Source of the DNA: Nanobdellota archaeon
GTDB lineage: Archaea > Nanobdellota > Nanobdellia > Parvarchaeales > Parvarchaeaceae
Assembly: GCA_021852265.1 (NCBI GenBank)
Contig: JAJZNV010000005.1
Span: forward strand, 8,402-72,401
Length of the DNA stretch: 64,000 bases
Reading direction: 5' to 3'
This document shows, one piece after another, positions 4,434-52,259 of this stretch. The translations under genes were made by a program, and so were the position numbers. Position 1 is the stretch's first letter; every line of letters begins with the position of its first letter. The notes under the pieces are model-generated. The model worked only from the letters and a program-made list of their open reading frames with translations. It had not been told where the DNA came from and searched no databases.

Positions 4434-4434
4434 T

Positions 4435-9642: not shown

Positions 9643-9645
9643 AAG

Positions 9646-10089: not shown

Positions 10090-10094
10090 AAGGA

Positions 10095-10165: not shown

Positions 10166-10192
10166 TTTATTCAAAACATAATTTGTTTTAGC

Positions 10193-10543: not shown

Positions 10544-10551
10544 ACATCATG

Positions 10552-10944: not shown

Positions 10945-11035
10945 ATAAAAGACAATACCTTATACGTTAAATATCTTTTTTGAAAACATTATCCACCATG
11001 TTAAAGTTTTATATAATGTCCGATTAAATCTAATT

Positions 11036-12082: not shown

Positions 12083-12146
12083 TACATGCTATTACGCCAC
12101 AAGCTTTTGTTTCGGTTCAAAAAAGAAAGTTATAAATATACACCGG

Positions 12147-12350: not shown

Positions 12351-12356
12351 TTGATT

Positions 12357-26762: not shown

Positions 26763-26857
26763 GAAAGAAATTAAAATTCACAAACTGTATTTAGTGAAAA
26801 AGCCCTAAATTACATATATCTAAAGTTTTATATATAAGTACTACTCTTAAGTAATAT

Positions 26858-27586
26858 ATGATAAAAGAAAATCGGATTAGTAATGACTTAGACTCCCTAG
26901 TTTCTGATGGTCGAAAGCATGAAAAACCGCTCGAAGCTGCGTTACTAACCGAAGACCTTAGTAAATATGATATCATACTCGTTGGGGAGGCTCATACAAG
27001 TTTGGGGGATAAACTTTATGAATTAGAACTATTGAAAAAGTACAAGCCGGAATATCTGCTTTCAGAAGGGTTTGGCTGGAGTGATTTAGATTCGGATATG
27101 TGGTTACCCGAAGCCACTCAAGCGTTCGGGATAGTACAGATTGGTGTCGATGTAAATCAGTATATACATACGAACTGGCCGTTCGTAGAGAATTTAAATG
27201 CGCCGGGCGCAAACATTTATGAAAAAATCAACAACACACCCAAATTCCTCTCAGATCGCATAAGAGCGTATTTTAAAAACCCGAATGAAGAAACACTTAA
27301 ACAAAAAGACGAAGCAATCAGGGATCAGAAAAATGTGCTAAAATTTCATCGTTGGGCAACCGCCATGACTAAACATAGGGAGACTGCAATGAGCGAGAAT
27401 ATAGTTAGCTATGTTAACAATCGATTTACAAAAAATAGCCCTCTTATAGCAATTATTGGTCATCATCACTTGGATACCCCTCCAGAACATAAGAAACTGC
27501 CGATTATTCTAGAAAACCTTGAAAAAAGTGGGATAAAATATATGGTTATAATTTTGTCGCACGAAAATAGTTTAGCGCCGTTATAA
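26858..27586 (+). CDS. Hypothetical protein (weak TraB/GumN/Tiki-like GxxH signatures)
   Basis: 242 aa. ILVGEAHTS and IIGHHHL resemble the paired motifs of that superfamily. The call is weak. Confidence 0.3.
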   Translation: MIKENRISNDLDSLVSDGRKHEKPLEAALLTEDLSKYDIILVGEAHTSLGDKLYELELLKKYKPEYLLSEGFGWSDLDSDMWLPEATQAFGIVQIGVDVNQYIHTNWPFVENLNAPGANIYEKINNTPKFLSDRIRAYFKNPNEETLKQKDEAIRDQKNVLKFHRWATAMTKHRETAMSENIVSYVNNRFTKNSPLIAIIGHHHLDTPPEHKKLPIILENLEKSGIKYMVIILSHENSLAPL

Positions 27587-27773
27587 ATCCGAATGTGCAA
27601 CTTTATGGGCGGAAAACTCCGTGCCCAATTTTCGTAGTCCTGACCTTATCCCGTTCTTCTCAAGGAAGAAGAAGTTCTTCCTTGTAGTTATGCACACACA
27701 TAGTTAATTGGAAAATCAGAAAAAGTTTAGTTTTCTTTGTGTTTGCAAAAATACCCAAAGGCCGTTTCACAAT

Positions 27774-37058: not shown

Positions 37059-37147
37059 GGGCCCGTCGTCTAGTGGATAGGATCGATGGCTTCGAATGCC
37101 ACTGATGGAGTGACCATCAGGCCGGGGTTCAAATCCCTGCGGGCCCT
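37059..37147 (+). tRNA. tRNA, probable Arg (anticodon UCG), with about 17-nt intron; integration target of the casposon
   Basis: Acceptor GGGCCCG/CGGGCCC, anticodon stem GATGG/CCATC, loop CTTCGA + intron + A, T arm CGGGG-TTCAAAT-CCCTG. The last 4 nt lie inside the left target-site duplication copy. Confidence 0.7.
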
Positions 37148-37157
37148 ATTCTGATTG
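37144..37157. repeat. Target-site duplication, left copy (ccctattctgattg)
   Basis: The same 14-mer abuts the outer end of each TIR in direct orientation (second copy at 50694-50707). Confidence 0.85.
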
Positions 37158-37380
37158 GGGGTATAGTATATCTCTTCCTTAATTTCACTCCTGCCCCAGT
37201 ATATATACAAAAGTATATACTTTCAATAATTCATGCCCAAATCATTTAAAATCAATATCTAATTTGTATAGGTTTCATTTAGGAGTATTCTAAGAGTAAA
37301 GTAGGGGTCATCTCGGATTCATCTGCGAGAAAACTCACTAATTAGTGATTCGTGAAAAAGGGGAAAAGTTCGAGAACTCG
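37158..37380. repeat. Left terminal inverted repeat (223 bp)
   Basis: Checked 10-mer by 10-mer: exact reverse complement of 50471-50693. Confidence 0.95.
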
Positions 37381-37553
37381 GAACAGTTTAAATAACTAAT
37401 TAGTGATGTTTGAGTAGGGTAACTAGGGATAGAGTCGAGTTACTATCAGTTAGCTAATATAATAAAAGTTTTTTAAGTTTGAAGGCCTGATTAAGAGTTG
37501 TAAAATTTACTTAAAAAGTAATCTTTATATAGATAAAATTTAACTATGTTTCA

Positions 37554-38696
37554 ATGGACCTTATATTAGAAGGGTTATTTATATTTTTTGTGATTGTTAC
37601 GACTCCGTTTACTCTTTTTCAGTTAGTACTTATTGTACGTAATAGGAAAGTTCTAAATAAAAAAATACCCCCTCCTCAATCTGGCAGGCGTATACTAGCT
37701 GTAATTGCGACTCTTGGTAAAGCAGATGATGTAGTGTTTCAAATCGTAAAACAACTCAAATCATATAATTTTAAGAATTTATACATATACATATTAGTTG
37801 AGTACGATAATAAGACTGATTATGGCGTAAAATCTATTGTAGTTCCAAAGGACTATAAAACAGATCATCATTCTAAATCCAAACATAGAGCTTTACATTA
37901 TTTTTCAGAATGGCTTAAAAAAGAAGGATATGGCAAGGAAACCTATGTAGTGCATTTAGACGATGATTCTGTAGTTTCTAAAAAATATTTAGAGTATGTG
38001 ATGGGAATGACGGCCGAGGCCGGACAGGGGGCCATAAGACTTAGGACGTATGGACACCATCTTTTTTCTACTTTAGCCGATTTTGGTAGAGTTGTAGATT
38101 GCGATACTTACTGCGCATTTTTTAATTCGAGAAGTACTCCTTTTGGAGTGCATGGGGAAGGTTTGGTAATAAGAGCCGATGTAGAAGAAGAGATTGGTTG
38201 GGATTATCAACCTACAGTAGCCGAAGATTTTATAATGGGCCAAAATATTTACTCCAAAGGGTATAAGTTTGATTTTATTCCAGGAGGTATCTACATAGCA
38301 CCACCTACAAACACAAGAGACTTTTATAATCAAAGAAGACGTTGGCACCACCACTTTTTTGAGTCGATTCACCTAGGTTACAAATTACATAAAAGTGCTA
38401 CTGCTTGGTTTGCATATCAGTATTCAATGGGTTGGGCCATGGCATTGGGGCTAGGTATCTGGATTTATGTTCTTATAGCCAGACCTAGTATCTATCCTAT
38501 ATTATTCTATATAACCACTTTTAATTTAATAGTGTCTTTTGGATTGTACCAATACGCTGCATATTACATAAAAAAATTAAAATACCATCTACTTATGTTA
38601 TTACTTCAAATCCCAGTCACCGTATATTACTCATTAACATTTTTTTACTACCTCCTTAAAAAACCTAAGAGCGATATATACATAAAAAAAGTGTAA
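37554..38696 (+). CDS. Family 2 glycosyltransferase, membrane-embedded processive type (D,D,D,QxxRW)
   Basis: 380 aa. N-terminal TM helix, VVHLDDDSVV (DxD), QRRRWHHH (Q-x-x-R-W) and C-terminal TM helices. Casposon cargo. Confidence 0.7.
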   Translation: MDLILEGLFIFFVIVTTPFTLFQLVLIVRNRKVLNKKIPPPQSGRRILAVIATLGKADDVVFQIVKQLKSYNFKNLYIYILVEYDNKTDYGVKSIVVPKDYKTDHHSKSKHRALHYFSEWLKKEGYGKETYVVHLDDDSVVSKKYLEYVMGMTAEAGQGAIRLRTYGHHLFSTLADFGRVVDCDTYCAFFNSRSTPFGVHGEGLVIRADVEEEIGWDYQPTVAEDFIMGQNIYSKGYKFDFIPGGIYIAPPTNTRDFYNQRRRWHHHFFESIHLGYKLHKSATAWFAYQYSMGWAMALGLGIWIYVLIARPSIYPILFYITTFNLIVSFGLYQYAAYYIKKLKYHLLMLLLQIPVTVYYSLTFFYYLLKKPKSDIYIKKV

Positions 38697-38727
38697 AAGT
38701 TATTAATTAAAGCAGTTTATAAATTTA

Positions 38728-39411
38728 ATGTCAACAACTATATTTGGGAAGATATCTTTTCTTAATGGTCAAATCGCTAAATTATCAATGGGTTCTAAGA
38801 TATTGAATTATGGCGGAGGTAGCATAGACATCAAAAACGGTATTGTGACAATAATTTTCAATGATACGAAGGAAAAAACGTTATTTGAGTTATACCACAT
38901 ATCTTATGATTTAATTGATAATCTCCTTTTAGGCAATGAACTTAACCTAGACAGAGCCATTATATTCTTCCCGGAAAGTGTAGAAAGAGACGGAATACAG
39001 GAACAGTTTGATTGGGATGTTTTCGAAATAAAGGCCGAACAAGTTGATATAAGAGAATTTGGAATTTTCCTTGCGGGAGATCCTCTATTTAGACAAGCTG
39101 TAAGAAACTTCCATATTGGTTTACTTGATACACGTGATGCACCGGCTCATTTTTATAGGGCCATTGAAGTTTTAAGGATAAGAGTTGCAACTCCAAATCC
39201 TAATAATAGAAGCGCCGAATGGGAGGAATTTAAGTCTAAAATATGTTTAAACAAAGAAGAGAAAGCTGACTTAATTTGTATGAAGGAAATAGCAAAAAAT
39301 TATCGACATGGTGTTAGGCTGGAAAATATAGATCATTTAAAATGGGTAGAGTTTACTAAAAAATTAATAATAAAAACTTATAATTACCTAAAAAAACAGC
39401 AGGCTTTTTGA
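38728..39411 (+). CDS. Hypothetical protein (casposon)
   Basis: 227-aa ORF with no family recognised. Confidence 0.4.
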   Translation: MSTTIFGKISFLNGQIAKLSMGSKILNYGGGSIDIKNGIVTIIFNDTKEKTLFELYHISYDLIDNLLLGNELNLDRAIIFFPESVERDGIQEQFDWDVFEIKAEQVDIREFGIFLAGDPLFRQAVRNFHIGLLDTRDAPAHFYRAIEVLRIRVATPNPNNRSAEWEEFKSKICLNKEEKADLICMKEIAKNYRHGVRLENIDHLKWVEFTKKLIIKTYNYLKKQQAF

Positions 39412-39419
39412 ATTTCTTT

Positions 39420-39674
39420 TCACTTCTCCCCCCACTGTTTTAATATCCTATCTGCTTCAAGTTCTTTTTCATAAATCCAATTATCATTTATCTCTGATAT
39501 TAACCCGATTAATTTTGGCGATCTTTTGTAAGCCGTTTTAGTTGCAGCGTAAACTTCTAATATCTTAGTAAAAACTGCATCGGCGCTTCTGCTTTTACTA
39601 TCAAGCTTTATTTGCATTATTTTTCTCCAGTTCTCGTAAGACACTGTAATGTCTTTATAGCCATTTCTTCTCAT
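39420..39674 (-). CDS. Hypothetical small protein (casposon; possibly RHH-like)
   Basis: 84 aa. Last gene of the minus-strand polB operon. The beta-strand/helix pattern ITVSYENWRKIMQIKLD is only suggestive. Confidence 0.35.
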   Translation of the reverse strand: MRRNGYKDITVSYENWRKIMQIKLDSKSRSADAVFTKILEVYAATKTAYKRSPKLIGLISEINDNWIYEKELEADRILKQWGEK

Positions 39675-39703
39675 ATTTTATGTTTTAAAGCCTAGTATTT
39701 TAA

Positions 39704-40138
39704 TCAGATTTCACCTTTTTTTATCAAGTCAGTCAATGCCCTTCCCTGCGTGTCAAGGAAATCCCTTCTCTGTTTCGCATCTGGATCTATCTTAGCCGAA
39801 GTTTTGTCTAAAACGTCCGTGTTTCTGAAGCGCAGTACGACATCGTCATCAAGCTTCTTCATAGAGGTATAATGCAGGTTTCTAAGTTTATCTGCGCAGT
39901 AGATACAGAACTTGCTGAATGGCACCATACTCTTATAGTTTTTTGATTTTATTGCGTCAGTCTTTGATAGTAGGTCTATTGCTTCATAGTAATCGGAGCT
40001 AGTTACTACAAAGTCCAGTGGGCGTCTTTTTTCCAGGTATACAATCACAAGCGCTTTGTACCATATCCTGTCTTTCGATTCAATCATATACTCATTCAAT
40101 GAACCGAATAATACGTTTTCAGGATCTTTATCTCTCAT
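39704..40138 (-). CDS. Hypothetical protein (casposon)
   Basis: 144 aa. Overlaps the polB 3' end by 11 nt, which suggests translational coupling. Confidence 0.4.
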   Translation of the reverse strand: MRDKDPENVLFGSLNEYMIESKDRIWYKALVIVYLEKRRPLDFVVTSSDYYEAIDLLSKTDAIKSKNYKSMVPFSKFCIYCADKLRNLHYTSMKKLDDDVVLRFRNTDVLDKTSAKIDPDAKQRRDFLDTQGRALTDLIKKGEI

Positions 40139-42836
40139 ATACCGCCTTGCTTTTTTGGCATCCCATCTTTGGATTTAAATCCATGTATGCCTGTATCCGT
40201 TTTATTATCTTACCCATCCTTCTGAATGGTTCTTGCTGTTTCCTTATCTGATAATACCTTCTTTTAGATATCCCTAGTCTGATTCTGTCGGTTTCTGTCA
40301 GCTCTCTCGCTTTTTCGGCCAGGTCCTCATATACTGTATAACTTCCATCTAAAACACCTACTACCTCGGACTCTTCCAGTTCATTGCTTTCTTTTCCTAT
40401 GTATTTTGTACTAGATGAGCAGAATATTACATGCTTTCTGCTTAGTTCTCCTATGTCTCCTTTAAACTTGCTCTCTGGGTGCTTCCAGTAATCCCATACC
40501 ACCTCTTCTATGGGCGTCCAGTATAATTGTGTATCCTGCTCGTATAATTTCCCACTCTTATAATCTATGAAAGGTTCATAGACTAAACTATTAAATGACT
40601 CTTTACTGCTGTTGACAAATGAATGAACTGGTATTATTGGCTCGTTAGTTTCAGGATCACGCCTACAGGATCTGCCCACCAAAACGAAATTGAACGGCCT
40701 TATAATCCCGAGCTTGGAAAATCTCTTTATTATTGACGGCTTTGTTACATTCAGCTCTGAAATCGCAAACTTACCTGAGTATTTTCGCACTATTTCATTA
40801 GGCCCTGTATTATTCAGTTCAATTTTCAGGATATCCTCCCAAATCTCTTTATTTTGAATGCCTTCTAGGTTTCCTAGCCCATGGGACGATGATGTGCGTA
40901 TAATTGGATTACCGTTTATGGTATCAAATAGAGCGTATCTCTTTGCTGATATACCATAGAAATTGACGTTTTCCAATGGTCTTCCATCCTCATCTTTCTC
41001 TACTTTAAACATGTCTGTTTCATGTTCATATGGGTTCAAAGGCTTGAAAAAGCTTTGTATTAGGTCTTTATGCTGCGGAGAGATCATTACGCTGTCTGTG
41101 TCGCAGTAAGCAAGGTACCCGCCGTTTCTTTTCAGCAGCGCTTCCGCTATACCCAAAACCAATCTAGAGGCTGATGTAAGCATAGTAGCTATGAGTGGAT
41201 TAAATTTAGAACCTGGTTTTTCAAGTCTATTCACCTTGCATATAAATTTCTTTAGGCCGTATACATCAACATTCTTATATTTTTCCAGTGGTTCAATGTC
41301 CAACTCTACGAAGATCCCGTAAGACATGGCATTAACTATGGTTTTTATCGCTTTCTGTTTAATAGTCAGCTGCCTTATCTCATTTTTATCCTTGGATATG
41401 CCTGCTTTGCGCTTTATCTCTAGTCTTTCATCTATTAGCTTCCGGACTATATTCTCTTCGGGACTTATAGTTATATCATCCATTATGTTTATCTCTCTAA
41501 GGCTATTTTGAACACCCTCACGCAGAAACTTTATAGCCGTTTTTATCTTTGGGACTTTGCCCGATAAGAATTTATCAGCTACCAGATCGGCAAGACTGTA
41601 CCATAAAGCCGTGCCGTCTGAAGAACTGACTACATTAAGCCCTATCGTATATGCATTCCTCCCATCATAATTGGATCTTATAGGCAATATATCGGAATCT
41701 GGGACTATCTCGCATATCACTGGAAGGCGTTTCCAAGTGCCTTTATCCATGAAATCTTCAATTTTTACAATTTCTAAGAAGGACTGAGTCTCGGCTGTCG
41801 CATCTTCATACCTTATCTTTTCAGCTTTTAGGAATGAGTCCATGTCTGTCAGAGTATAAACAGAAGGGTACATCGAAGTAAAGTCAAGATATGTTACTTT
41901 TGATGGCAATTTTCGGATTTTTACTTCTGTCCTACCCCCATAATATGTAGTCATAATATAACCCAATAGCTCTTTTGGAAAGTCTTTATTCTGCTCCATA
42001 AAGGGTTTTATACCGTAATTTTTAAGGTATGCTTTGGCCAGAGATGCCGGTGAGAGCAGCCTTTCGGGCGGTATATCAAGCATAAAGGTTGAGTATCTTT
42101 CCGTTAGCTTCTTATATAATTCGTAGGTAACATCCACATCGTTAATGTTATAAGCTATGTAATCTGGTGTTATTCTGCCGTGTCCATTTGGATGCGTCTT
42201 CCTGGAAATGCAGTCAAAATCCTCAGCGGCTGACTCAAGCGAGTAGCTTTTGCTTGTCAATGCAAATGCAAATGTCCTTAGATCCAGAAATCTTCCTCTG
42301 TAATATTCATATTCCTCATCTCTTTTGTCTCGGGGGGCAGTTATAGAATAAAATGACCTCTTTGAATCAAGGCTCTTTATATCTATCCTAGGCATTGTGG
42401 GATTTTTGGACAGGATAAAGGAGAACCCCCCTTTCAATGATTTTCTAGCTTCTCCGTATCTTATTGCGAGTCTGGATATGTCAAACGGCAAGTTAAACCC
42501 GACACAGAGGGCCTTTGCATTGTAAACGTAAGGCAGGAATATCCTATCAACAAAATCCGATCTGTTCATTAAAGTGAGATCATTTTCTAATGCGTATTGC
42601 TCTATTGTTTTTACATCATCTGTTTTTAAATCATCCGCGTAGAATAAGTATACAGCAAGGAGTTTGTCAGAAATGAATATCTTGCATGTTCCAAACAGCA
42701 GTTTCTGTTCTTTGTCTGTAGTAGTTTCCGTATCAAAAACAAGGATTATGTCGGTACTATAACAAAATCGCTTATCTGGTTTATCTACCAATTCAATAGG
42801 GGCATACGCCCTTAGCACTACAGTTTCATTAACCAT
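40128..42836 (-). CDS. polB: Family B DNA polymerase (casposon-encoded)
   Basis: 902 aa. ExoI LVFDTET, ExoII GFNLPFD, ExoIII YNINDVDVTYELY, Pol A YLDFTSMYPS, Pol B KTIVNAMSYGIF, Pol C YCDTDSV, KxY SAKRYALF. Confidence 0.9.
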   Translation of the reverse strand: MVNETVVLRAYAPIELVDKPDKRFCYSTDIILVFDTETTTDKEQKLLFGTCKIFISDKLLAVYLFYADDLKTDDVKTIEQYALENDLTLMNRSDFVDRIFLPYVYNAKALCVGFNLPFDISRLAIRYGEARKSLKGGFSFILSKNPTMPRIDIKSLDSKRSFYSITAPRDKRDEEYEYYRGRFLDLRTFAFALTSKSYSLESAAEDFDCISRKTHPNGHGRITPDYIAYNINDVDVTYELYKKLTERYSTFMLDIPPERLLSPASLAKAYLKNYGIKPFMEQNKDFPKELLGYIMTTYYGGRTEVKIRKLPSKVTYLDFTSMYPSVYTLTDMDSFLKAEKIRYEDATAETQSFLEIVKIEDFMDKGTWKRLPVICEIVPDSDILPIRSNYDGRNAYTIGLNVVSSSDGTALWYSLADLVADKFLSGKVPKIKTAIKFLREGVQNSLREINIMDDITISPEENIVRKLIDERLEIKRKAGISKDKNEIRQLTIKQKAIKTIVNAMSYGIFVELDIEPLEKYKNVDVYGLKKFICKVNRLEKPGSKFNPLIATMLTSASRLVLGIAEALLKRNGGYLAYCDTDSVMISPQHKDLIQSFFKPLNPYEHETDMFKVEKDEDGRPLENVNFYGISAKRYALFDTINGNPIIRTSSSHGLGNLEGIQNKEIWEDILKIELNNTGPNEIVRKYSGKFAISELNVTKPSIIKRFSKLGIIRPFNFVLVGRSCRRDPETNEPIIPVHSFVNSSKESFNSLVYEPFIDYKSGKLYEQDTQLYWTPIEEVVWDYWKHPESKFKGDIGELSRKHVIFCSSSTKYIGKESNELEESEVVGVLDGSYTVYEDLAEKARELTETDRIRLGISKRRYYQIRKQQEPFRRMGKIIKRIQAYMDLNPKMGCQKSKAVYER

Positions 42837-43302
42837 GCTTGTCTGCCCCCAGTAAAGTTGATATCGTGTAACATAAAGAGTTTGACAAGAATAATGCAGA
42901 AGCTTCGTTTAGTTTTACGTACCGAAGCATTAATATGTCGGATATTCCCTGTAGTAAAAAGGCATTTCTAACGTTTTCTGTTTGATCGGCAAGCTCCCAT
43001 CTTTTGTCCCATACCATCTGCCTTTTTGATAGTTCCTGGTGGCATGATTTACACACGGTTAAGACTATATTCGGGTTATGCTTCCATCCGGACGGATGGT
43101 GCAGTTCTGAATCATTATCTTTTATCAGTTTGTCGCATACCTTACAGATTGGGCTACGGAGAAATTCCTCATTATTGGATATTATAAAATTAATAAGTTT
43201 AATTAAATCAGACAGCTCTTTAGATAGGTTTTTAATATAATCCTCTTCAGCTTTCTTTAATTCAGAATTCAATTTTACCAGTAAACTTTCAGTCGGTGGC
43301 AT
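42829..43302 (-). CDS. HNH-type nuclease-like protein (casposon)
   Basis: 157 aa. CKVCDKLI...ELHHPSGWKHNPNIVLTVCKSCHQELS is an HNH-like CxxC...HH...N...CxxCH arrangement. Overlaps the polB start by 8 nt. Confidence 0.6.
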   Translation of the reverse strand: MPPTESLLVKLNSELKKAEEDYIKNLSKELSDLIKLINFIISNNEEFLRSPICKVCDKLIKDNDSELHHPSGWKHNPNIVLTVCKSCHQELSKRQMVWDKRWELADQTENVRNAFLLQGISDILMLRYVKLNEASALFLSNSLCYTISTLLGADKHG

Positions 43303-43966
43303 AGATGGAATAAAATTCAGGCTCCTCCCTCCTCTCCACTATTTCGAGAATCTTTTTCAGATCAGTTTCAAATGGATAAAACTTTAGATTTGAATCGAAA
43401 ACTCCACGGTTCTTAAATGCTTCTAACCTTTCTGGTTCGTTTTTGAAAATGAACCAGCGAACCGCATCAAGATATTGTCCAAGCAAAGATGCCTCTCTAG
43501 AATTATTTAGTTCAATTATAAGATCATTAGAATTTGAATATATGTGCATTATTCTTGGTATCTCGTCACTTGGATTAACAATCCATTTATTGCCCACTTT
43601 ACGGAAAGCGCCTGTGGCTCTTACAACATCAGAAAACTTAATGCCGTTGCTTTTAGCTATTTGAACAGGATCTCTATCTGGAAAGCGCCTAGATTCACTT
43701 ACGACTTTAAGGGCCATTTCTCTTTGTATTTTTTGCTTTGATGTCAACTTATTCCAAGGTCGCTGGTATAACGGCTTTCTTTTAGGATACCTTAAAGGAT
43801 TAGAGCCGTGTCCTCTTAGTTCCCTTAAAGTCGCATTCGGATATTTTGCATGTGCTTTTATAATGCGCTGAACGTATGGGCTGTTTGGATTCTTTTGCGC
43901 CGCTAACCACTCTTCAAACGTCCGAAACCTCCCAGAGAGCCCCATGATTAATATCTGGTCTCCCAT
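43289..43966 (-). CDS. Hypothetical protein (casposon, first gene of polB operon)
   Basis: 225 aa. Overlaps the downstream HNH gene by 14 nt. No family recognised. Confidence 0.4.
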   Translation of the reverse strand: MGDQILIMGLSGRFRTFEEWLAAQKNPNSPYVQRIIKAHAKYPNATLRELRGHGSNPLRYPKRKPLYQRPWNKLTSKQKIQREMALKVVSESRRFPDRDPVQIAKSNGIKFSDVVRATGAFRKVGNKWIVNPSDEIPRIMHIYSNSNDLIIELNNSREASLLGQYLDAVRWFIFKNEPERLEAFKNRGVFDSNLKFYPFETDLKKILEIVERREEPEFYSIYATD

Positions 43967-43975
43967 GAATAAATA

Positions 43976-44004
43976 CGTTATAGCGTACTTAGTTCGTTAT
44001 AGCG
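43976..44004. promoter_or_regulatory. Two copies of CGTTATAGCG (43976-43985, 43995-44004) in the 66-bp divergent promoter region; candidate operator
   Basis: Direct 10-mers 19 bp apart, between the divergent operons. A TATA-like tatttata follows at about 44011-44018. Confidence 0.3.
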
Positions 44005-44032
44005 AAAAGTATTTATAGGTGGGATAACTTAA

Positions 44033-45097
44033 GTGTATATGGTAAATAATAATAAGACACTTAAAAAGATAGAAAATAAATATGAGATTTTGGGGTACTT
44101 ATTTTCCAAGTCTAATCCAGTAACTTCGGCCGATTTGATTAAAGAAATACGCGGTATGAAGAGAACTGCATTTTTTAGTAATTTAAGAGATTTGGTAGAT
44201 AAAGGATATGTCTCTAAAACATATATAAATGGGGGTCCGGTCTATACACTGACACCTAAAGGAATAGATTACTACAAAAAAGATGTTTGGAGGGTCATAT
44301 CAGACCTTATGAGTTTCCAAGAGTATGACTATGGGGGGGATAATGATTCAGGCTTGCATACAATGTTTCAAGGTGTTTATTTTAATATTTTTCAATCTAG
44401 TGGAAAATCAGCACTTTTAGATTTAAAGAAAAGTAGTGATGAGATAAAAGATTCAATAATAAACCGTATATCTAATCAGATAAAAATGGCTTTAAACGCA
44501 AAAACTCTGCCTAAAGTGAATCCTGGAGCTAAAGTGATATTCGCTTTAGATATAGACTATGAACAAATGTACCAAAGGATAAATACACTAAGAATATTTA
44601 TAGATGATCTAAATGAGGATGTTTCTTATATCTTTAAAGATACAAGGCTTGGTTTCTTTCATGAGGAGGATAAAAGGCGATTTAATCTTGAGATGTTATT
44701 TAAGATCTTATCCGAATTGGAAAATTTTCTTGGTAAGAGCATCGAAAAGAAGATAAATAAGCTTCTTGATTACATATCTGATAATGAAGAGGAGTTCTTG
44801 GAATTTATAAACGGCGCTTTAGATACGGAGCTGTTAAACTGTGTAATAGAAGATGTCCGAAAAAATAAGCATCCCTTGGATGATCCGGAGATAAAAAATA
44901 AGCTTGTTGAAGTAGAGCTTACTCCTGGTAAATTTGGTGTTCGCATCTTAACTGGAACTTATCTAGATGTCGCGCTTTATCTTTTACATAAAAATAAAGA
45001 ATTAGTAGCTAAAATAGAAAAGTTTACAAAAGAAAATCGTGATAAAGAAGATGATATTGTGAAAAATATCTTAAAAAACGGGGTAAGAAAAGTATGA
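44033..45097 (+). CDS. Winged-helix DNA-binding protein (casposon)
   Basis: 354 aa. N-terminal wHTH ILGYLFSKSNPVTSADLIKEIRGMKRTAFFSNLRDLVDKGYVSKTYINGGPVYTLTPKG. ATG at 44039 is an alternative start. ATGA overlap with cas1. Confidence 0.55.
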   Translation: MYMVNNNKTLKKIENKYEILGYLFSKSNPVTSADLIKEIRGMKRTAFFSNLRDLVDKGYVSKTYINGGPVYTLTPKGIDYYKKDVWRVISDLMSFQEYDYGGDNDSGLHTMFQGVYFNIFQSSGKSALLDLKKSSDEIKDSIINRISNQIKMALNAKTLPKVNPGAKVIFALDIDYEQMYQRINTLRIFIDDLNEDVSYIFKDTRLGFFHEEDKRRFNLEMLFKILSELENFLGKSIEKKINKLLDYISDNEEEFLEFINGALDTELLNCVIEDVRKNKHPLDDPEIKNKLVEVELTPGKFGVRILTGTYLDVALYLLHKNKELVAKIEKFTKENRDKEDDIVKNILKNGVRKV

Positions 45098-46272
45098 AAC
45101 CGCTATTAATCTCTGGTTTTGGGAGCTTCTTAAGCGTTGACAGGCGCAAACTAATAGTTTACAATACTTTTACTAAAGAAAAGTTTGAATTTTACCCCCA
45201 TCAGATAGAATATGATACAATAATAATAGACGGCCACTCTGGCGCTGTATCCTTTGATGCAATGAGATGGATAGCCAAGCATGATATAGCTTTAACCCTG
45301 CTGAATTGGAATGGGAATGTTCTTAGCACTCTGCAGCCTAAAGAGCCAGTTTCTGGAAAGCTTAAAATTGCACAGTACAAATCTTATCTTAATAAAGAAA
45401 GGCGTATAAACCTAGCTTCAGAGATAATAAAAGCCAAAATAAACAAATCGTATGAAATACTGGAAAAACTCTCCGTATATTACAAAGATCTGAAAATAAA
45501 TGATGTAAAAGCAAGCTTCGATAAAGAAGCCAGTCAAACTAAATTAGAGAGTATTAACTATATAATGATGTACGAAGGAAGGGTAGCCGATTTATACTGG
45601 AAAAACATGGCTAAAATCTTTAATTATTTAGCTCCGGAATTCAATTTCAAGTCTAGAAAAGGGAAATCGTATTCCTGGAACATGAATGCATCCGATGAAA
45701 TAAATGCCATGCTAAACTACGGATATGCCATTTTGGAAACACTGGTTAGAAAATATGTAAATGCCATCGGATTGGATCAAGATATCGGATTCTTGCACGA
45801 ACTAGCTAATTCGAGGGCTAGCCTAATTTACGACTTGCAGGAATTGTACAGATGGGTAATAGATCTTAGTGTTATCCAGGTTTTAGAGGATAAGAAGCTT
45901 AAGAAGAGCGACTTCATAGTCACTGAGAACTATAATATAAGACTTAGGGAAAGTGCTGCAAAGATGCTAATAAATAAGATAAAAGTTAACTTCAATAGCA
46001 CGTCTGTTTACAAGGGCAAAAATAGGGCCTTGGAATTCACCTTACTGGACAACATAAGAAAGCTGGCCGATCATGTATCCGATAGATCAAATGTTCTTGA
46101 GTTTTACATTCCGGAGGTAAAGATTGACAGAAACGATGACATAGCGGTAAGAGATAAAATATTGAGCATTACGCCTGCTGAAAGGAAAAAGCTTAAGATA
46201 AACAAAAGCACATTATGGTACAGGCAGAAAGCTATAAAGAATAGAAAAAGGATTAAACTATACAAACAATGA
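45094..46272 (+). CDS. cas1: Cas1-family integrase (casposase) with C-terminal HTH
   Basis: 392 aa. Cas1 motifs MMYEGRVADLYW (Glu), NAMLNYGYAILE, GFLHE (His) and LIYDLQELYRW (Asp). Basic C-terminal HTH-like tail KINKSTLWYRQKAIKNRKR. Confidence 0.85.
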   Translation: MKPLLISGFGSFLSVDRRKLIVYNTFTKEKFEFYPHQIEYDTIIIDGHSGAVSFDAMRWIAKHDIALTLLNWNGNVLSTLQPKEPVSGKLKIAQYKSYLNKERRINLASEIIKAKINKSYEILEKLSVYYKDLKINDVKASFDKEASQTKLESINYIMMYEGRVADLYWKNMAKIFNYLAPEFNFKSRKGKSYSWNMNASDEINAMLNYGYAILETLVRKYVNAIGLDQDIGFLHELANSRASLIYDLQELYRWVIDLSVIQVLEDKKLKKSDFIVTENYNIRLRESAAKMLINKIKVNFNSTSVYKGKNRALEFTLLDNIRKLADHVSDRSNVLEFYIPEVKIDRNDDIAVRDKILSITPAERKKLKINKSTLWYRQKAIKNRKRIKLYKQ

Positions 46273-46287
46273 TAATTTAAACTATTT

Positions 46288-46704
46288 CTAAAATAATCTT
46301 GGAGGCCTACGTTCTTTTAAACCTGTAATTGGGTTAATCCAATACTCTCCTTTTTCTTTTTTATGTGCCCTTTTTTGTCGTATTTCTTTTACTCTATCAT
46401 CGTTAGTTTTTTGGGCATGACAAGTGGCACATAGTGCTTGTATATTTGATATGTCAGTTTCCCCTCCCTTTGAATGGGGTTTAATATGGTCGTATTGGGT
46501 AGCAGAGGGTATTAATTGTTTACCACATATCGCACATTTGCCATGCTGCCTTTCCCATACCTTGTTTTTTTCCGATTTACTTATTTGTCTTTTATGGTCC
46601 TTTTTATTAGATTTTGGACTTTGCCAGATAGAATTTAAGCCTAGGGAATTGTTCTTTTTTATTTTATTACCAAAAATATCATAATTACTGTCTAAAATAC
46701 CCAT
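46288..46704 (-). CDS. HNH endonuclease (casposon)
   Basis: 138 aa. HGKCAICGKQL...YDHIKPHSKGGETDISNIQALCATCHAQK is a canonical HNH motif. Confidence 0.8.
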   Translation of the reverse strand: MGILDSNYDIFGNKIKKNNSLGLNSIWQSPKSNKKDHKRQISKSEKNKVWERQHGKCAICGKQLIPSATQYDHIKPHSKGGETDISNIQALCATCHAQKTNDDRVKEIRQKRAHKKEKGEYWINPITGLKERRPPRLF

Positions 46705-46778
46705 TATCGATGTAGTATTTCTTTATTTAAATAAGTTTATGCCATTTCGGTTTCTCTAAAACTATGTTGTAACTATTT

Positions 46779-47414
46779 TTACTTATACAATAAAACATGT
46801 TTAGGAAAGTGGAGTAGAAGATAAAATGTATTAGAAATTGAATTCCTATAATCATCTTTTATATATGAAGTTATGCAGAATGGTTGCAAAGAAGTATCAA
46901 TTTTCATTCGTGGGTAAGTTTTGGTTTCTTTTTTGTTACAGTGTAGCTGAGCTATAAAGATTTTCTTCTTAATTTTCCCCCTAAGATTTTTGTATCTATA
47001 CAAACCATCACTTAAGGCTATACCATATTCACAACCATGACTAAATATAAAAACACTCTCCATGTTTTTATTTATAATAGCTCTTTCGAAATCTCGCCCT
47101 TTTTCAACAAAAATTATTTTGTAATTCAATTTTAGGTGTTTTAACCTATATAGAAGTAAGAAAATAGAATTACTGTAAATATGTATATTCTCTAAAGAAC
47201 TGCGCATCCCAGATATTTTACGTTTTCCAATTATAATTCCTACAAATTTTGTAGTTTTGTTGTATTTCTTTTTTTTGTTAGTATTTTTAGATACTCTTAA
47301 TAATATTGGCATGAAAATAATAGAGATTGCTATAAAAATAAAACTGATTACTAGCGGTATTACAAATGCTATTACAAGTATTATTGTTATTAATACAATT
47401 AATTGAAATGCCAT
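46779..47414 (-). CDS. Hypothetical membrane-anchored protein (casposon)
   Basis: 211 aa with an N-terminal hydrophobic helix pair followed by a Lys-rich linker. No family recognised. Confidence 0.35.
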   Translation of the reverse strand: MAFQLIVLITIILVIAFVIPLVISFIFIAISIIFMPILLRVSKNTNKKKKYNKTTKFVGIIIGKRKISGMRSSLENIHIYSNSIFLLLYRLKHLKLNYKIIFVEKGRDFERAIINKNMESVFIFSHGCEYGIALSDGLYRYKNLRGKIKKKIFIAQLHCNKKETKTYPRMKIDTSLQPFCITSYIKDDYRNSISNTFYLLLHFPKHVLLYK

Positions 47415-47595
47415 TTATATAATGATACAAAAACCAAATAAATATTTATAAAAGATTTTTAAGTCCGTAAGATTAGCGCCAAATGCTGATAAATAATAAA
47501 ATTTTATTATTCCCACCCTATAAAAATGGGCTAACTTGTGTTCCCCCTAATCAAAAAATAACAAATTATAATTTATTTATGGCAATTAAAAAGAT

Positions 47596-48986
47596 TTAAG
47601 AAACGCTGCCAAAGCTCACGGAAGGCATAACCCCCTCTGGAGCCAAATTTGCTAGAGCAATATAAAATATGATCATTTTTCCTGAATTAAGTTGAAAAAA
47701 TACACCTGTTTTAGCTGGAGTCGACATTTTTACACCACCAGTAATATAATTAACAAAATTTATTGAGGAGTATACATTTCTATTTAAGAAATACATTGAG
47801 AGTGGATACGTCTGATTCGCTACGGTACTTGGTATACTATAACCATAATAATCATTTGAAAGATTATATGTTTGAACACCATAATTACCATTACCGCCTG
47901 CGCCATTCAACCAATAAGTTGGCGCTGTATTTGGTCCACCAAATCCATCTCTTGCATATGAAGCATTAGAAAAAGATTGGAATAAAGTTATGTATAGATA
48001 ATCCGAAGGAGAGAAATAACCATAACTTCCGCCACTACTTGAGGATAAATGTAAACCATCATCTGCAGAACTTACGGGAGGCAACGGATTATAAGCACTA
48101 CTCCAACCATTTAATGAGGCGGAATTTTCAAAATTATTATAATAATAAAATAAATTGAACCCATCATCGTATTCTGCATAAGTGGAAGATAATTGAGGGG
48201 CTTCTCCATCGTTTACTGTATTGAAAAGATTAGTTGATGTAGGAGCGAAGCCCATGTAGATTGTCTGCTTTGAGCCTGCGGGATTGATGAGGTCAACTTG
48301 ACCCACCAGATTGCATGGGCTGATGTATAGTTTTCAAGCCAGGAATCTAGTATCTGGCCTGTTGAAGAGAAGAATTCGACGTTCTGGCCAAAAGGAGACG
48401 AAGAGATCTTTACCCAGCCTGGACTGGAGCTAGTGACGTTAATCATCTGCTGAAAAGGGGAAGGAGTGCCTTGACTTTGTGTGTTTGTTATATTTAAGGG
48501 TTCATATGAAGTAGCTGAAGAAGGGGGAGAAGCTGCTGTTCCTGAGACAGTTCCTGTTGAAGTGTATGGTCCCGGAAATATCTGTCCTGGCTCCAGGTAG
48601 GATATGACAGCAGAAACTGAATACCTTGCTCCTGGGCTGCATAATGATGATGAGGGTACCGTTACAGTCTGTATGCTATTGGGCTGGATTAGGATGTTTG
48701 GACTGTAGGTTGTCTTGCCTGATGAGGAGGTCAGGTTGATTTGGGTTATGTTTATAGGGTAACCTGTTGAGTCTCCCATTGATATTGTGAAGCTTGTTCC
48801 TCCTAGGCAGACTGCATTTATTGTTCCTAAATTGGAGAAGCCTGTTATTGTTGTTGACAGTGATGAAGAAGGTGAAAAGATACCTAGACTATATAAGACT
48901 GCTGCGACGATGACAATGACTAGTATGGCCCAGCCGTACGTCATCATATACTCCAATGCCGATTGGGATTTTCGTGGGAGACTCAT
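47596..48986 (-). pseudogene. Type IV pilin-like (class III signal peptide) surface protein with DUF2341-like domain, interrupted by a frameshift
   Basis: ORFs 48213-48986 and 47596-48306 overlap by 94 nt in different frames. Joined, they read ...AIWWVKLTSSIP / AGSKQTIYMGFAP..., a continuous DUF2341-like motif. The N-terminal 170 aa are paralogous to 49220-50404. The total length of 1391 nt is not divisible by 3. Confidence 0.65.
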
Positions 48987-49219
48987 ATAAGAGAAATAAG
49001 GGGAGTAAATAAATAGTTTTCATCGGGGCTACAGTAAACCACTTGATTAGGGCAGATTTTGCTCGAATCCAGTATTTATTACCTCGAAGGAGATTTAAAT
49101 TATGTTGTGTTCTATTAAAGTTATAGATTAAGAGAGTCATCGCCTAATAAATTCTGTTCTGCTTCAGGCGCTTAGACTTTATGTGCTTGTTTCTCTGCTA
49201 TTTGTGGTCAAGATATATA

Positions 49220-50404
49220 TTAGGAAAGCCCAGTATCCTGGTAATTACTTGTAAACAGAACATCTGAAACAATTCCATTTTTATTATTTCCGCTGTAATC
49301 CACAGCTGAACCATTCAAGGGCCAAAATACATCTATATTCATCCCACTAAGCGGTTTGCCTGTTAATCCGCTCGTGTACAATTGTTTTATTTGTGCAGGC
49401 GAAAGAGAACTATTATAGTATTGAAAGTTACTAACAAAACCATCTATTGTAGATGCTATACTTGGAGAGGATGAACTAAATATATTTGTTGGGTGTCCAT
49501 TTGGATAACCTAAATAAAAACATACGCTGCCAGGCGGCCAGCTTTCTGCCCCAGTATTAGATGAAACTAAGTTTCCATTTAAATATAAAGAATCATTATC
49601 AGTGGCGTTGTTATAAGACAGAACTGTATAGTACCATTCTCCTTGGTGTACGCTTGGACTTACTAGGTCAGGAAGATTCCATACCGATCCCCAGATAACT
49701 CCTGAGTTTAGGCCTAGGGGCGACATAGAGCCTGTGCAAAGTAATTGAATGAATGGCTGCACGGAATTCACATTAGATATTGAATTCATATAAACCCACA
49801 TCGAAAATGTTTTTGGTGAATTCGTTTCCATAGCTAAATTACTTATTTCTATTGTGCTTATCGGCGAACTACCCCCAGCGGTTGAATTTTGACCAAAGAA
49901 TTCAGCTACATATTTCGGTAAAATTAAAGAAGAAGACGTTCCAGAAACCGTTCCACTCGAGATATATGGTCCCGGGAATGTCTGACTTGGTTCAGTGTAG
50001 TTTACTGTCACAGCAAGAGAGTAGCGTGAGCCTGCTGCCGGACAAATGTTCGGAACTGAGAATATGTAACTCGAAGTAGGCTGGATTATTGGATTTGGGT
50101 CCACGGTTGAATTTGGCTTGAATGTGGAGATCTGACCAGTGGATGATTTTGCTGTGACACTAGTAATATTTATTGGGTAACCTGTGGAGTCTCCTAAGCT
50201 TATTCTTAATATTCCGTTGGCTGTGCACTCTCCCGTAACACTGCCCAGGTTGGAGAAACCGGTTACTGTTGAAGACAATGAGGATGCTGGAGAAAATATT
50301 CCCAAACTGTATAAAACCCCTGCTACTATCACAATGACTAGTATGGCCCAGCCATAAGTCATCATATACTCCAGTGCTGATTGGGATCTTCGTGGTAGAC
50401 TCAT
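49220..50404 (-). CDS. Type IV pilin-like (class III signal peptide) surface protein with C-terminal LamG/ConA-like lectin domain
   Basis: 394 aa. N-terminus MSLPRRSQSALEYMMTYGWAILVIVIVAGVL (prepilin-type signal plus hydrophobic helix). C-terminal FSMWVYMN...GEWYYTVLSYNNATDNDSLYLNGNLV is typical of Laminin-G-3-like domains. Confidence 0.7.
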   Translation of the reverse strand: MSLPRRSQSALEYMMTYGWAILVIVIVAGVLYSLGIFSPASSLSSTVTGFSNLGSVTGECTANGILRISLGDSTGYPINITSVTAKSSTGQISTFKPNSTVDPNPIIQPTSSYIFSVPNICPAAGSRYSLAVTVNYTEPSQTFPGPYISSGTVSGTSSSLILPKYVAEFFGQNSTAGGSSPISTIEISNLAMETNSPKTFSMWVYMNSISNVNSVQPFIQLLCTGSMSPLGLNSGVIWGSVWNLPDLVSPSVHQGEWYYTVLSYNNATDNDSLYLNGNLVSSNTGAESWPPGSVCFYLGYPNGHPTNIFSSSSPSIASTIDGFVSNFQYYNSSLSPAQIKQLYTSGLTGKPLSGMNIDVFWPLNGSAVDYSGNNKNGIVSDVLFTSNYQDTGLS

Positions 50405-50470
50405 ATGATAGAGAAGGCAAGAGGAAATAAATAGTTTTCATTGGACTGCGGAAAGTCAAATTTTAAACCT

Positions 50471-50693
50471 CGAGTTCTCGAACTTTTCCCCTTTTTCACG
50501 AATCACTAATTAGTGAGTTTTCTCGCAGATGAATCCGAGATGACCCCTACTTTACTCTTAGAATACTCCTAAATGAAACCTATACAAATTAGATATTGAT
50601 TTTAAATGATTTGGGCATGAATTATTGAAAGTATATACTTTTGTATATATACTGGGGCAGGAGTGAAATTAAGGAAGAGATATACTATACCCC
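50471..50693. repeat. Right terminal inverted repeat (223 bp)
   Basis: Exact reverse complement of 37158-37380. Confidence 0.95.
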
Positions 50694-50707
50694 CCCTATT
50701 CTGATTG
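50694..50707. repeat. Target-site duplication, right copy (ccctattctgattg)
   Basis: Identical to 37144-37157 and directly abuts the right TIR. Confidence 0.85.
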
Positions 50708-50720: not shown

Positions 50721-52259
50721 TTATACATTACCGAAAAGACTGTTCACATAGTTGCAGGTATTCTGGATTATCGTGGAGTTAAAAGAGATCCATGTGCATG
50801 GTTCAAATGGCAGCGTGGTTTGGTTAATTGAAGCAAGATACTGATTTTTTAAGATAAAATAATCTATGTTAACTTTATAAAAGCTGCAACTATTTTTGCC
50901 ATAAATGTAAACATTGCCATAGCTATAACGCAATGGGAGAGAAATGTTGCTCATAGGAAAGTAACTTATTATCGGCTCTGATATGTTATTTACATTGTAT
51001 GGTAATGGTGCGGCAGGTATACCATAATAATCTAAGTAAACCCATTCATTCGAATAAACTGTGCAGTTCATAGTTCCATAGATTGAACTAAAAGGCACCG
51101 ATGCCCCGCTTAATTGGCTCATTGCTATTAGATTCCCATTAGTAGGAGATACTGCCGAAAAAATTATACATGCTGAGATTAAGAGAGATACAAGCGCAAA
51201 ACAGAATATCCAAAAATAATCCCTTCTTGTGAACGTAGCCGATAAAATTAATATGGAAAAAATGAGCGTTAGTAAAAAGAACCTAAATGTAGCATCACTA
51301 TTGCTAACTAACCCATAAGCCCTATAGTAAATGAAAAATGCTAGCACAAGTCCGCCAAATAATACTGAGTTTCTCTTATTAAGTGTTTTCTTCAGGAATT
51401 TGTTTCTGTAAATTGCATATCCAACTATAATCAGTCCTGCAGGTATTACTAGTTCGATTAGTCCATTAAGAATAAAATGCGTCGCCCAATAAAAACCACG
51501 CGCGATAGTAATCCCAAACGACAGGTAAGCCACCGCAAAACCATAAATAAAATTACCGTATCTAATATAATTAAAAAAGAAGTAAGGTAGCAAGGTAACT
51601 ATAAATATCACTGCATTTTTTATGAATAAAATTGTATTCTTTGCATGCTGCTTATTGACGAATAAAAACAGAAGCAGCGGAGCAAATAATATGGCGTAAT
51701 ATTTAGATAAGAATGCCAATGCTAGGAAGAACCCTGCCAGAACATCACGTTTGTAGATACTCGAAACAAAAAGAATAAGAAATGAGAAGGTAATAAGCTC
51801 GGCGCCGTTCATCATCCCGTATGCGAGCAGGAAAAAGTTCATGCAGAGAGAGACAGAAATAAACATATCTATACCAGTCAGTTTTGTTATGCGATAAATT
51901 GCGTAAAAAAATATTACATTAGAGAGAAGTATAAACCCGTAGACGGCATAATTTCCCATAACAAAGGCGAGGAGGCCTATTATAAAACTCTCTAAAATCG
52001 CACGGAAATTCTCAAAATAATAACCATTATGTAAAAGATAATTTCCATTTAGTATTCTAACTACCATATCCCATGACTGGAAATAAAAGAACTGTAAACA
52101 AAATATCAGCGTTGAGGCCAGGAAATAAAAGATAAGAATATAGCGCAGATTTTTATGGATAAAATCTGATAATTGTTTGTTTATAGACCGTATTTTTGTG
52201 CCAATTACGCCATAGCGTGTAATTTTATCTGTTATGATATGAAAATATCGCGTGCCCAT
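50721..52259 (-). CDS. Polytopic integral membrane protein (possible GT-C-type glycosyltransferase)
   Basis: 512 aa with more than 10 hydrophobic helices and a C-terminal soluble domain. The topology resembles ArnT/PMT-like enzymes, but no diagnostic motif was verified. Confidence 0.35.
   Translation of the reverse strand: MGTRYFHIITDKITRYGVIGTKIRSINKQLSDFIHKNLRYILIFYFLASTLIFCLQFFYFQSWDMVVRILNGNYLLHNGYYFENFRAILESFIIGLLAFVMGNYAVYGFILLSNVIFFYAIYRITKLTGIDMFISVSLCMNFFLLAYGMMNGAELITFSFLILFVSSIYKRDVLAGFFLALAFLSKYYAILFAPLLLFLFVNKQHAKNTILFIKNAVIFIVTLLPYFFFNYIRYGNFIYGFAVAYLSFGITIARGFYWATHFILNGLIELVIPAGLIIVGYAIYRNKFLKKTLNKRNSVLFGGLVLAFFIYYRAYGLVSNSDATFRFFLLTLIFSILILSATFTRRDYFWIFCFALVSLLISACIIFSAVSPTNGNLIAMSQLSGASVPFSSIYGTMNCTVYSNEWVYLDYYGIPAAPLPYNVNNISEPIISYFPMSNISLPLRYSYGNVYIYGKNSCSFYKVNIDYFILKNQYLASINQTTLPFEPCTWISFNSTIIQNTCNYVNSLFGNV

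Follow-up and report, generated by a model that had tools for sequence, protein, structure and literature searches.

The stretch analyzed here, referred to as the window, comprises 64,000 nucleotides (nt) of DNA from a Nanobdellota archaeon (GTDB lineage Archaea; Nanobdellota; Nanobdellia; Parvarchaeales; Parvarchaeaceae), corresponding to positions 8,402 to 72,401 of the forward strand of contig JAJZNV010000005.1 in NCBI GenBank assembly GCA_021852265.1. Beside a tRNA-Ser(CGA) gene, it contains a 13.5-kb casposon (approximately 37157–50694) whose passenger genes include a membrane glycosyltransferase of the GT2 type in the left arm and two pilin-like genes in the right arm. The boundaries of the element, marked by terminal inverted repeats (TIRs) and a target-site duplication (TSD), and these passenger genes are given below in window coordinates.

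37059..37147, plus strand: tRNA-Ser(CGA), the integration target (ARAGORN; Rfam tRNA, 46.7 bits)
37144..37157: left TSD copy, CCCTATTCTGATTG (sequence reading)
37157..37380: left TIR, 224 nt, terminus GGGGTATAGTATATCTC (repeat search, 100% complementary)
37554..38696, plus strand: membrane GT2, 380 amino acids (aa), intact in the window (Pfam PF13632, Glyco_trans_2_3, 7.6e-24)
47596..48986, minus strand: DUF2341-type pilin-like gene with a 1-nt frameshift (frame switch at the CCC run 48280–48282)
49159..50441, minus strand: LamG cassette, with 92.7% nucleotide homology to the chromosomal P0001 gene (blastn against L019)
49220..50404, minus strand: intact pilin-like LamG lectin protein, 394 aa (Pfam Laminin_G_3, 8e-10)
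50471..50694: right TIR, 224 nt (repeat search, 100% complementary to the left TIR)
50694..50707: right TSD copy (sequence reading)

The left TIR directly abuts the 3' end of tRNA-Ser(CGA), leaving the tRNA gene whole, and the TSD overlaps the last 4 nt of that gene; we give its length as 12–14 bp because a terminal G/C run blurs the boundary. Using a flanking metallophosphoesterase gene, we retrieved 23 contigs of the same species, and the flanks of those compared were 99.9% identical to the window. An exact, uninterrupted empty junction, GCGGGCCCTATTCTGATTGAAGAGGG, was present in seven of these contigs, where the tRNA is followed by a 512-aa host gene, 178 bp downstream of the metallophosphoesterase gene, while the filled left junction was found at two loci besides the window. 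Furthermore, CCCTATTCTGATTG occurs singly in one empty-site contig (L006) and twice around the window element. Because seven conspecific contigs show the exact empty site, everything between the TIRs, the GT2 gene and both pilin-like genes included, is cargo. This bears out the first-pass annotation, which had called the element a casposon with these genes placed just inside its TIRs and reading inward, and we found none of them at the orthologous position where the element is lacking.

The element is also mobile beyond this site. Its TIR terminal motif was found again at element ends in 13 loci, and related ends occupy at least eight insertion sites, with presence and absence varying inside one population whose flanking host proteins carry the NCBI name Candidatus Parvarchaeota. 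Ends of the same or related elements lie at further sites in L005, where the LamG gene and an 88%-identical repeat adjoin a different host flank, in L056, where a third site is occupied by a sister element of 95% identity, and in L070–L074; sister copies use non-tRNA sites too. In L005 (1753–1976, aligned with window 50471–50695) the LamG gene is 100% identical to that of the window while the adjoining terminal repeat is only about 88% identical, a mismatch that suggests recombination between element variants.

Two further structures were seen in the surroundings of the insertion. At the same tRNA-Ser site, L014 (10758–11240; GCA_027370475.1) has nt 1–85 of the left TIR fused to window 50298–50686, a segment made up of the first 107 nt of the LamG gene, the promoter and the right TIR, and this is either an internally deleted mini-element of approximately 480 bp or an assembly chimera. 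Immediately right of the insertion, the 512-aa host gene (50721–52259, minus strand) encodes a polytopic membrane protein with a weak, below-threshold match to PMT_2, a GT-C glycosyltransferase family (E = 9e-4); it is found at empty sites and is thus chromosomal rather than cargo. The same genome carries a second strain-variable indel at window 26772–27638 (approximately 870 bp, with a 242-aa open reading frame (ORF)), which is missing in L006 and L009 and present in L007, L008, L010 and L014.

Between the passenger genes lies the replication and integration core, listed here together with the remaining gene of each arm.

38728..39411, plus strand: left-arm gene, 227 aa (precomputed DUF8168_C tag)
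39420..40138, minus strand: two small ORFs of the core, with 84 aa and 144 aa (also conserved in L056, the sister casposon)
40128..42836, minus strand: family B DNA polymerase (PolB), 902 aa (Pfam DNA_pol_B_2 1.3e-10, DNA_pol_B 4.5e-6)
42829..43966, minus strand: two conserved casposon core ORFs, 157 aa (Zn-ribbon/HNH-like) and 225 aa (tblastn)
44033..45097, plus strand: putative winged helix-turn-helix (HTH) protein, 354 aa, upstream of Cas1 (weak matches)
45094..46272, plus strand: casposase, a Cas1 homolog of 392 aa with a C-terminal HTH (Pfam Cas_Cas1, 1.3e-58)
46288..46704, minus strand: HNH endonuclease, 138 aa (Pfam HNH, 4.7e-14)
46779..47414, minus strand: right-arm membrane-anchored protein, 211 aa (without significant family match)

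The best solved-structure match of the casposase was 6OPM (E = 2e-75 over residues 1–386, including the C-terminal HTH segment), deposited under the title 'CRISPR-associated endonuclease Cas1', which we take to be the casposase of Methanosarcina mazei; structures of CRISPR Cas1 proteins matched at 3e-30 or weaker. Casposase relatives with 51–59% identity come from Nitrosotalea, Nitrososphaera, Methanocellaceae, Thermoplasmata, Micrarchaeota and metagenome-assembled genomes (MAGs) labelled 'Nanoarchaeota', several of which carry the end motif of the window casposon and are possibly Parvarchaeales. The window PolB is 41–48% identical to casposon PolBs beside Cas1 homologs in Nitrosotalea and Methanocellaceae loci, and tblastn matches to the 157-aa and 225-aa proteins adjoin PolB in L026, L027, L044 and L046. 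For the 354-aa protein we obtained weak MarR-like or winged-HTH matches only (E = 0.008–0.07; PHROG MarR, 0.0055), and neither the 225-aa nor the 157-aa core protein matched an HTH profile. Searches of Pfam, NCBIfam, PADLOC and PHROGs returned no useful annotation for the 227-, 211-, 84-, 144-, 157-, 225- and 354-aa proteins.

According to the published description, family 2 casposons encode PolB, an HNH nuclease, two HTH proteins and a Cas1 that ends in an HTH, measure 6–16 kb and have a target overlapping the last 4–7 nt of a tRNA gene (PMC4046053); one has been described in Nitrosotalea (PMC6563490). The window element fits this plan with two exceptions, the PolB subtype and the HTH proteins, whose matches are weak, and its identity as a complete, recently mobile family-2-type casposon of Candidatus Parvarchaeota (DPANN/ARMAN) is well supported. 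Like AciBoo-C1 of Aciduliprofundum boonei, the Methanosarcina mazei casposons and NitNCS1-C1 of Nitrosotalea, it combines a casposase with HTH, PolB, HNH and small HTH or conserved proteins with TIRs, a TSD of about 14 bp, placement at a tRNA 3' end, a length within 6–16 kb and element-specific passenger genes (PMC4046053, PMC4779613, PMC6563490). It differs from them in its DPANN (Parvarchaeota) host, its long, perfect 224-nt TIRs, and its cargo of a pilin-like lectin from the host chromosome and a GT2 resembling hyaluronan synthases (HAS), whereas the described family 2 cargo consists mostly of nucleases, methyltransferases, and toxin-antitoxin or defence genes. No description of casposons in DPANN archaea was found in the literature searched, and both this host group and the cargo class are new for family-2-type casposons.

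We next turn to the cargo, beginning with the intact LamG gene of the right arm. Its product exceeds the Laminin_G_3 cut-off (39.5 bits against 27.6), and its AlphaFold2 (AF2) model, with a mean confidence (pLDDT) of 87.5, consists of a helix at residues 10–33, a beta-sandwich at 46–156 and a jelly roll at 166–385. Among the profile matches in the PDB, with E-values down to 3.6e-9, are an S-layer domain-containing protein (4qvs) and domains of the arabinanase, sialidase lectin and pentraxin types; Foldseek matches, which reach 9e-10, include the minor pilin PilC (7oa8). The LamG-type C-terminal domain proposed in the first-pass annotation is therefore supported by Pfam, PDB profiles and fold comparison alike. 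Both right-arm proteins start MSLPR(K/R)SQSALEYMMTYGWAILV (N-terminus MSLPR(K/R)SQSALEYMMTYGWAILVIVIVA), which can be read as a short charged leader, MSLPR(K/R)S, followed by QSALEYMMTYGWAILVIVIVA, with a glutamate at +5 if the cut falls after the serine. In an alignment of 78 homologs, Q8–I21 are invariant or nearly so, a pattern such as would be expected of a pilin assembly helix. P0003, a chromosomal homolog with 89% identity, is encoded 4.4 kb downstream of two overlapping genes, one for a T2SSE ATPase and the other for a protein with 10 transmembrane (TM) helices; in the window itself, tblastn with the L018 ATPase and its neighbours detected no type IV pilus machinery.

By architecture, the closest functional analogue of the LamG protein is PilC of Streptococcus sanguinis, which has a class III signal peptide, a short pilin moiety, and Ig-like and ConA-like lectin modules, and which binds glycans at the pilus tip (PMC9934059). 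By this analogy, the LamG protein would be processed by a prepilin peptidase, displayed on a pilus and able to bind glycans. The two share no detectable sequence similarity outside the lectin fold (9% identity, TM-score 0.26), and the LamG protein differs in being archaeal, in its QSALEY-type N-terminus, and in that its pilus incorporation and glycan binding are putative. Related proteins are familiar from other DPANN archaea: in the micrarchaeon Mia14, LamG-like jelly-roll proteins are expanded, some lie near type IV pilus genes or in genomic islands, a role in host-cell interaction has been proposed for them, and gene transfer with Thermoplasmatales has been reported (PMC5498576). Mia14 belongs to another phylum and its islands were not identified as casposons, whereas the window offers a defined vehicle, boundaries and an empty site.

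The two right-arm proteins are 60% identical over their first approximately 160 aa, a little less than the 170-aa shared module of the first-pass annotation, with no similarity beyond. Their upstream regions also share AATGAAAACTATTTATTT, about −41 to −24 from each ATG, as had been pointed out, and a direct repeat of 195 nt (approximately 80% identical) reaches 40 nt upstream of each start codon. This arrangement had been taken to indicate a duplication that included the promoter, an explanation we could rule out, as each gene is closer to a chromosomal relative (92.7% and 87% nucleotide identity) than to its neighbour (approximately 80%). The shared upstream sequence is therefore a promoter element of the whole family. 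The two pilin-like families have at least 770 and at least 907 members, and those with a named organism are essentially all from Parvarchaeota, ARMAN-4 included. P0001, a chromosomal gene between those for an MFS transporter and the CCA-adding enzyme, encodes a protein with 95% aa identity to the LamG protein; the nucleotide homology begins 37 nt before the ATG, 30 nt from the inner edge of the terminal repeat, takes in the promoter-like box AAAACTATTTATTT and continues to 61 nt past the stop. For the DUF2341-type gene, the chromosomal P0265, near eRF1, encodes a protein 92% identical over the N-terminal 64%, and a chromosomal relative shows 87% nucleotide identity that begins 34 nt upstream and extends over the first 826 nt before the sequences diverge. 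We conclude from these comparisons that the two genes represent separate captures, or one capture of two family members, from a family of the host lineage, and that they are a recent addition specific to the window element lineage.

Chromosomal members of the LamG type may also stand in groups: P0003 is found in arrays where as many as five paralogs stand among toxin-antitoxin genes. In L015/L017 (4473–15732), up to five LamG pilin-like paralogs are interleaved with AbiE, HEPN/nucleotidyltransferase pairs and AAA_14/DUF4143 ATPases, a layout that resembles a variable island.

The second pilin-like gene is disrupted. Its ORF at 48213–48986 (minus strand, 257 aa) scores 21.1 bits against the DUF2341 cut-off of 23.4 and covers profile positions 2–42 of 84, with the remainder of the gene in another frame (ORF 47596–48306); in tblastn, the 495-aa Parvarchaeota homolog P0114 aligns to the first ORF and then, from 48280–48282, to the other frame. 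Adding one C at that run yields a 463-aa protein that reaches 29.3 bits over positions 2–81, and intact homologs of 460–490 aa occur in Parvarchaeota. The DUF2341-like head named in the first-pass annotation thus emerges only after a 1-nt repair, and the gene is a frameshifted pseudogene, leaving one of the two proposed adhesins intact as encoded. Window 48768–48985, the first 218 nt of this gene, is inverted in a contig otherwise 100% identical to the window (L001/L052, which are the same contig, ERZ27237460 k141_571932). This 218-bp segment is bounded by an 11-bp inverted repeat, TGAGTCTCCCA / TGGGAGACTCA, and the inversion is either real or an assembly artefact.

The left-arm GT2 matches Glyco_trans_2_3 at 85 bits (cut-off 27) and contains HLDDDS, AED and QRRRW, including the DDD and QRRRW motifs read from it at the outset; among 70 homologs, D136–138, D225 and R261–W264 are invariant. 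Its AF2 model (pLDDT 96) places a GT-A domain and interface helices between one TM helix at the N-terminus and approximately three at the C-terminus. The top 11 PDB matches in Foldseek were hyaluronan synthases of Chlorella virus and Xenopus (TM-scores 0.57–0.68; CvHAS 0.63–0.68, also XlHAS1), followed by the Pyrobaculum mannosyltransferase PcManGT (6yv7) and BcsA, while sequence searches with either the single sequence or a 70-sequence profile matched no solved structure. With the hyaluronan synthases, BcsA and enzymes of the NodC/chitin synthase type the protein shares the GT-A domain, motifs, interface helices and C-terminal TM bundle; it differs from processive GT2 synthases in being far smaller (380 aa, approximately four TM helices), and its processivity is putative.

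When near-identical cargo copies are excluded, the closest GT2 homologs have at most 54% identity, and all those with a taxon-specific organism name are from Thermoplasmatota; one more is labelled just 'archaeon'. Both of the Thermoplasmatota contexts examined were chromosomal, one of them beside other glycosyltransferase genes. The genes following the Thermoplasmata homologs are unrelated to the 227-aa protein, and we therefore rejected a conserved module of GT2 and its downstream gene. One Thermoplasmatota homolog has an NCBI accession numerically near Parvarchaeota MAG proteins (MCL44...), which may come from the same study. Since both association and gene exchange with Thermoplasmatales have been reported for ARMAN archaea (PMC5498576), transfer of the GT2 gene from a partner lineage is plausible but unproven.

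Relatives of the element differ in their cargo. The sister casposon (L056 and eight other contigs, 95% identical) keeps the GT2 gene and, with it, the 227-aa gene. A third lineage (L070–L074; for example, L071 9332–18490) has the same terminal motif, GGGGTATAG(G/T)ATATCTC, and five different left flanks, two of which are tRNA 3' ends (tRNA-Pro and tRNA-Glu). In these loci the GT2 gene is followed by genes for DUF302, a cupredoxin-like protein, an insertion sequence, redoxins (thioredoxin), YHS proteins and a copper P-type ATPase. The approximately 10–11 kb available contained neither a Cas1 nor a PolB gene, and these elements may represent non-autonomous derivatives of casposons whose cargo is of the metal-resistance type. 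The left flank of the copper-resistance element in L073 (265–2832) is a PolB gene, 41% identical to that of the window, which suggests that casposons inserted here in tandem or one inside another. Among other Parvarchaeales casposons, the cargo of L034 comprises restriction-modification genes, ParB and a GT4 fragment, and that of L029 consists of unrelated genes; distant relatives have nothing in common with the window element beyond Cas1, PolB and the 157-aa and 225-aa proteins. A pilin-like match in L041 was dismissed as casposon cargo, since it lies 6 kb outside the inverted repeats of that locus (1542–12150). The L041 casposon sits beside tRNA-Arg in a 637-kb contig, and nested inverted repeats (arms of 162, 86 and 66 nt) lie at 11723–12653, at the right end of this related casposon.

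Within the clade, the GT2 gene has been held at the left end through approximately 17% nucleotide divergence and is an old left-end passenger of Thermoplasmatota type, intact only in the window lineage. In the window, its poly-C tract (codons 39–42, 37668–37677), CCCCCTCCTC, is in frame and interrupted by a T. The sister lineages are each one C short at this tract, as set out below, and we regard the recurrence of such −1 alleles at the same tract as notable. Tract length is uniform per lineage across samples (all C9 or all C8), which disfavours active phase switching.

Taken together, we think it probable that this is a family-2-type casposon carrying captured pilin-lectin cassettes alongside an older GT2 passenger, from whose protein families we infer roles at the cell surface. 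According to this reading, the casposase inserted the element right after tRNA-Ser(CGA), generating the 12–14-bp duplication, and PolB, HNH and the small conserved proteins form the replication and integration core. That the arms accept cargo, including promoter-bearing cassettes of host-lineage origin, is well supported, with passenger genes placed between the core and each TIR. The right arm holds two such cassettes, copied from a large, mosaic type-IV-pilin-like family of the host lineage; in the common plan of these proteins, a class-III-type signal and a helix at the N-terminus lead into a beta-sandwich stalk that is topped by a lectin-like head of variable type. Once cleaved by the host prepilin peptidase, the LamG protein could be exposed along a type-IV-pilus-like fibre or at its tip and, as PilC does, serve as an adhesin that binds glycans. 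The GT2 might either synthesize a beta-linked glycan of the cell surface or transfer a single sugar to a glycan on a lipid carrier. Carriage of the element may also change adhesion or virus susceptibility, and the effects on glycans, pili and host-symbiont interaction suggested at the outset are putative.

Several observations weigh against parts of this proposal. The best Pfam model for PolB is DNA_pol_B_2 ('organellar and viral'), so the subtype expected for family 2 (RNA-primed, PolB3-like) is not settled by this match. At the putative prepilin cleavage site, position −1 is a serine, Gly or Ala being commoner, and the 159-aa N-terminal module matched no pilin or class-III-signal profile in Pfam (E up to 1) or NCBIfam. 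The case for pilins comes from the motif, the model and the gene neighbourhood of one homolog; of the class III signal pilins first proposed, the motif, the helix model and the N-terminal conservation stand, and profile recognition does not. For the GT2, the description as a processive synthase was fair as regards fold and motifs, but processivity itself is unreadable from motifs, and the non-HAS match PcManGT scores almost equally (TM-score 0.57/0.61). This match and the small TM bundle leave open a single-transfer enzyme, namely a minimal protein of the cellulose-synthase fold that acts in N-glycan biosynthesis by transferring a single sugar to a lipid-linked oligosaccharide. We consider such an enzyme a minority prospect worth keeping in view: with approximately 1 + 3 TM helices in 380 aa it would be compact, and the Thermoplasmata homologs cluster with other GT2 and methyltransferase genes, yet hyaluronan synthases fill the top 11 fold matches and the D, DxD, ED, QRRRW set is complete and invariant.

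Other observations bear on whether the cargo matters to its host at all, and they suggest that it may be decaying rather than selected. All eight readable element copies have the same CCC run, and so the frameshift, in the DUF2341-type gene. The GT2 tract is C9, one C short of in-frame, in nine of nine sister contigs, and in the third lineage, whose GT2 is 83% identical, it is C8, again one C short, at five loci (20 contigs). Selection on the cargo is not evident, given that the GT2 gene is frameshifted in both sister element lineages, and with one pilin gene affected as well, the frameshifts argue that at least part of the cargo is not kept by selection. In the sister casposon, moreover, the right arm has been swapped: a SLFN_AlbA_2 protein follows Cas1 in place of the HNH, 211-aa and pilin genes. 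A wider survey of cargo found GT2 in the sister lineages, in frameshifted form, and neither GT2 nor pilin cargo in the Nitrosotalea, Nitrososphaera, Methanocellaceae, Thermoplasmata, Micrarchaeota and JGI metagenome loci. The passengers could then be neutral hitch-hikers, acquired at random by recombination or template switching with the chromosome, without a role and eroding, a view also in keeping with cargo that differs in every related Parvarchaeales casposon examined and with the possible 480-bp deletion derivative in L014. We hold this to be unlikely, though far from negligible, because the LamG gene and the window GT2 are intact, the LamG protein is identical in six contigs from several samples, its cassette retained the promoter box, and the GT2 gene kept its place at the left end despite the divergence of the clade. 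Conversely, the GT2, and perhaps the lectin, might remodel the cell surface in the manner of prophage seroconversion glycosyltransferases, blocking superinfection by viruses or rival elements, or retargeting attachment to a Thermoplasmatota host, with the poly-C tract as an on/off switch. Phase variation of this kind is a bacterial paradigm. Here, the GT2 gene is a conserved left-end passenger in three diverged element lineages, both sister disruptions are −1 at the same C tract, and the T-interrupted tract of the window would be 'locked on'; the named GT2 relatives are, in addition, all from Thermoplasmatota, reported partners of ARMAN (PMC5498576). As tract lengths that are uniform per lineage resemble fixed mutations rather than switching, we judge a conversion-like function quite improbable.

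The first-pass annotation had regarded surface-related cargo as undescribed for casposons, which holds in part. A glycosyltransferase is among the non-conserved genes of HenMar-C2, a bacterial family 3 casposon of Henriciella marina (PMC4779613), an element we liken to ours by description only and which differs in its domain of life, its casposon family and the absence of reported pilin-like genes. The casposon as a vehicle for pilin-lectin genes, and such genes as casposon cargo, appear unreported.

Casposons are likely ancestors of the CRISPR adaptation machinery, and the window element indicates that they are active in a DPANN lineage and able to capture entire host gene cassettes, promoters included. 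The captured genes belong to the surface-protein family most often proposed for attachment of DPANN archaea to their hosts. A broader idea, which we consider rather doubtful, is that casposons of episymbiotic DPANN archaea serve as shuttles that move host-interaction genes from strain to strain and from site to site, as a counterpart of lysogenic conversion. They would capture promoter-bearing cassettes of the hypervariable pilin-lectin family and carry a partner-type (Thermoplasmatota) glycan synthase, so that gain or loss of cargo, or the state of the poly-C tract, would alter attachment to partner cells or of viruses. If the cargo is expressed, casposons would offer contact-dependent organisms a route to rapid surface variation, for which filled versus empty sites and intact versus broken alleles provide natural comparisons in existing metagenomes.

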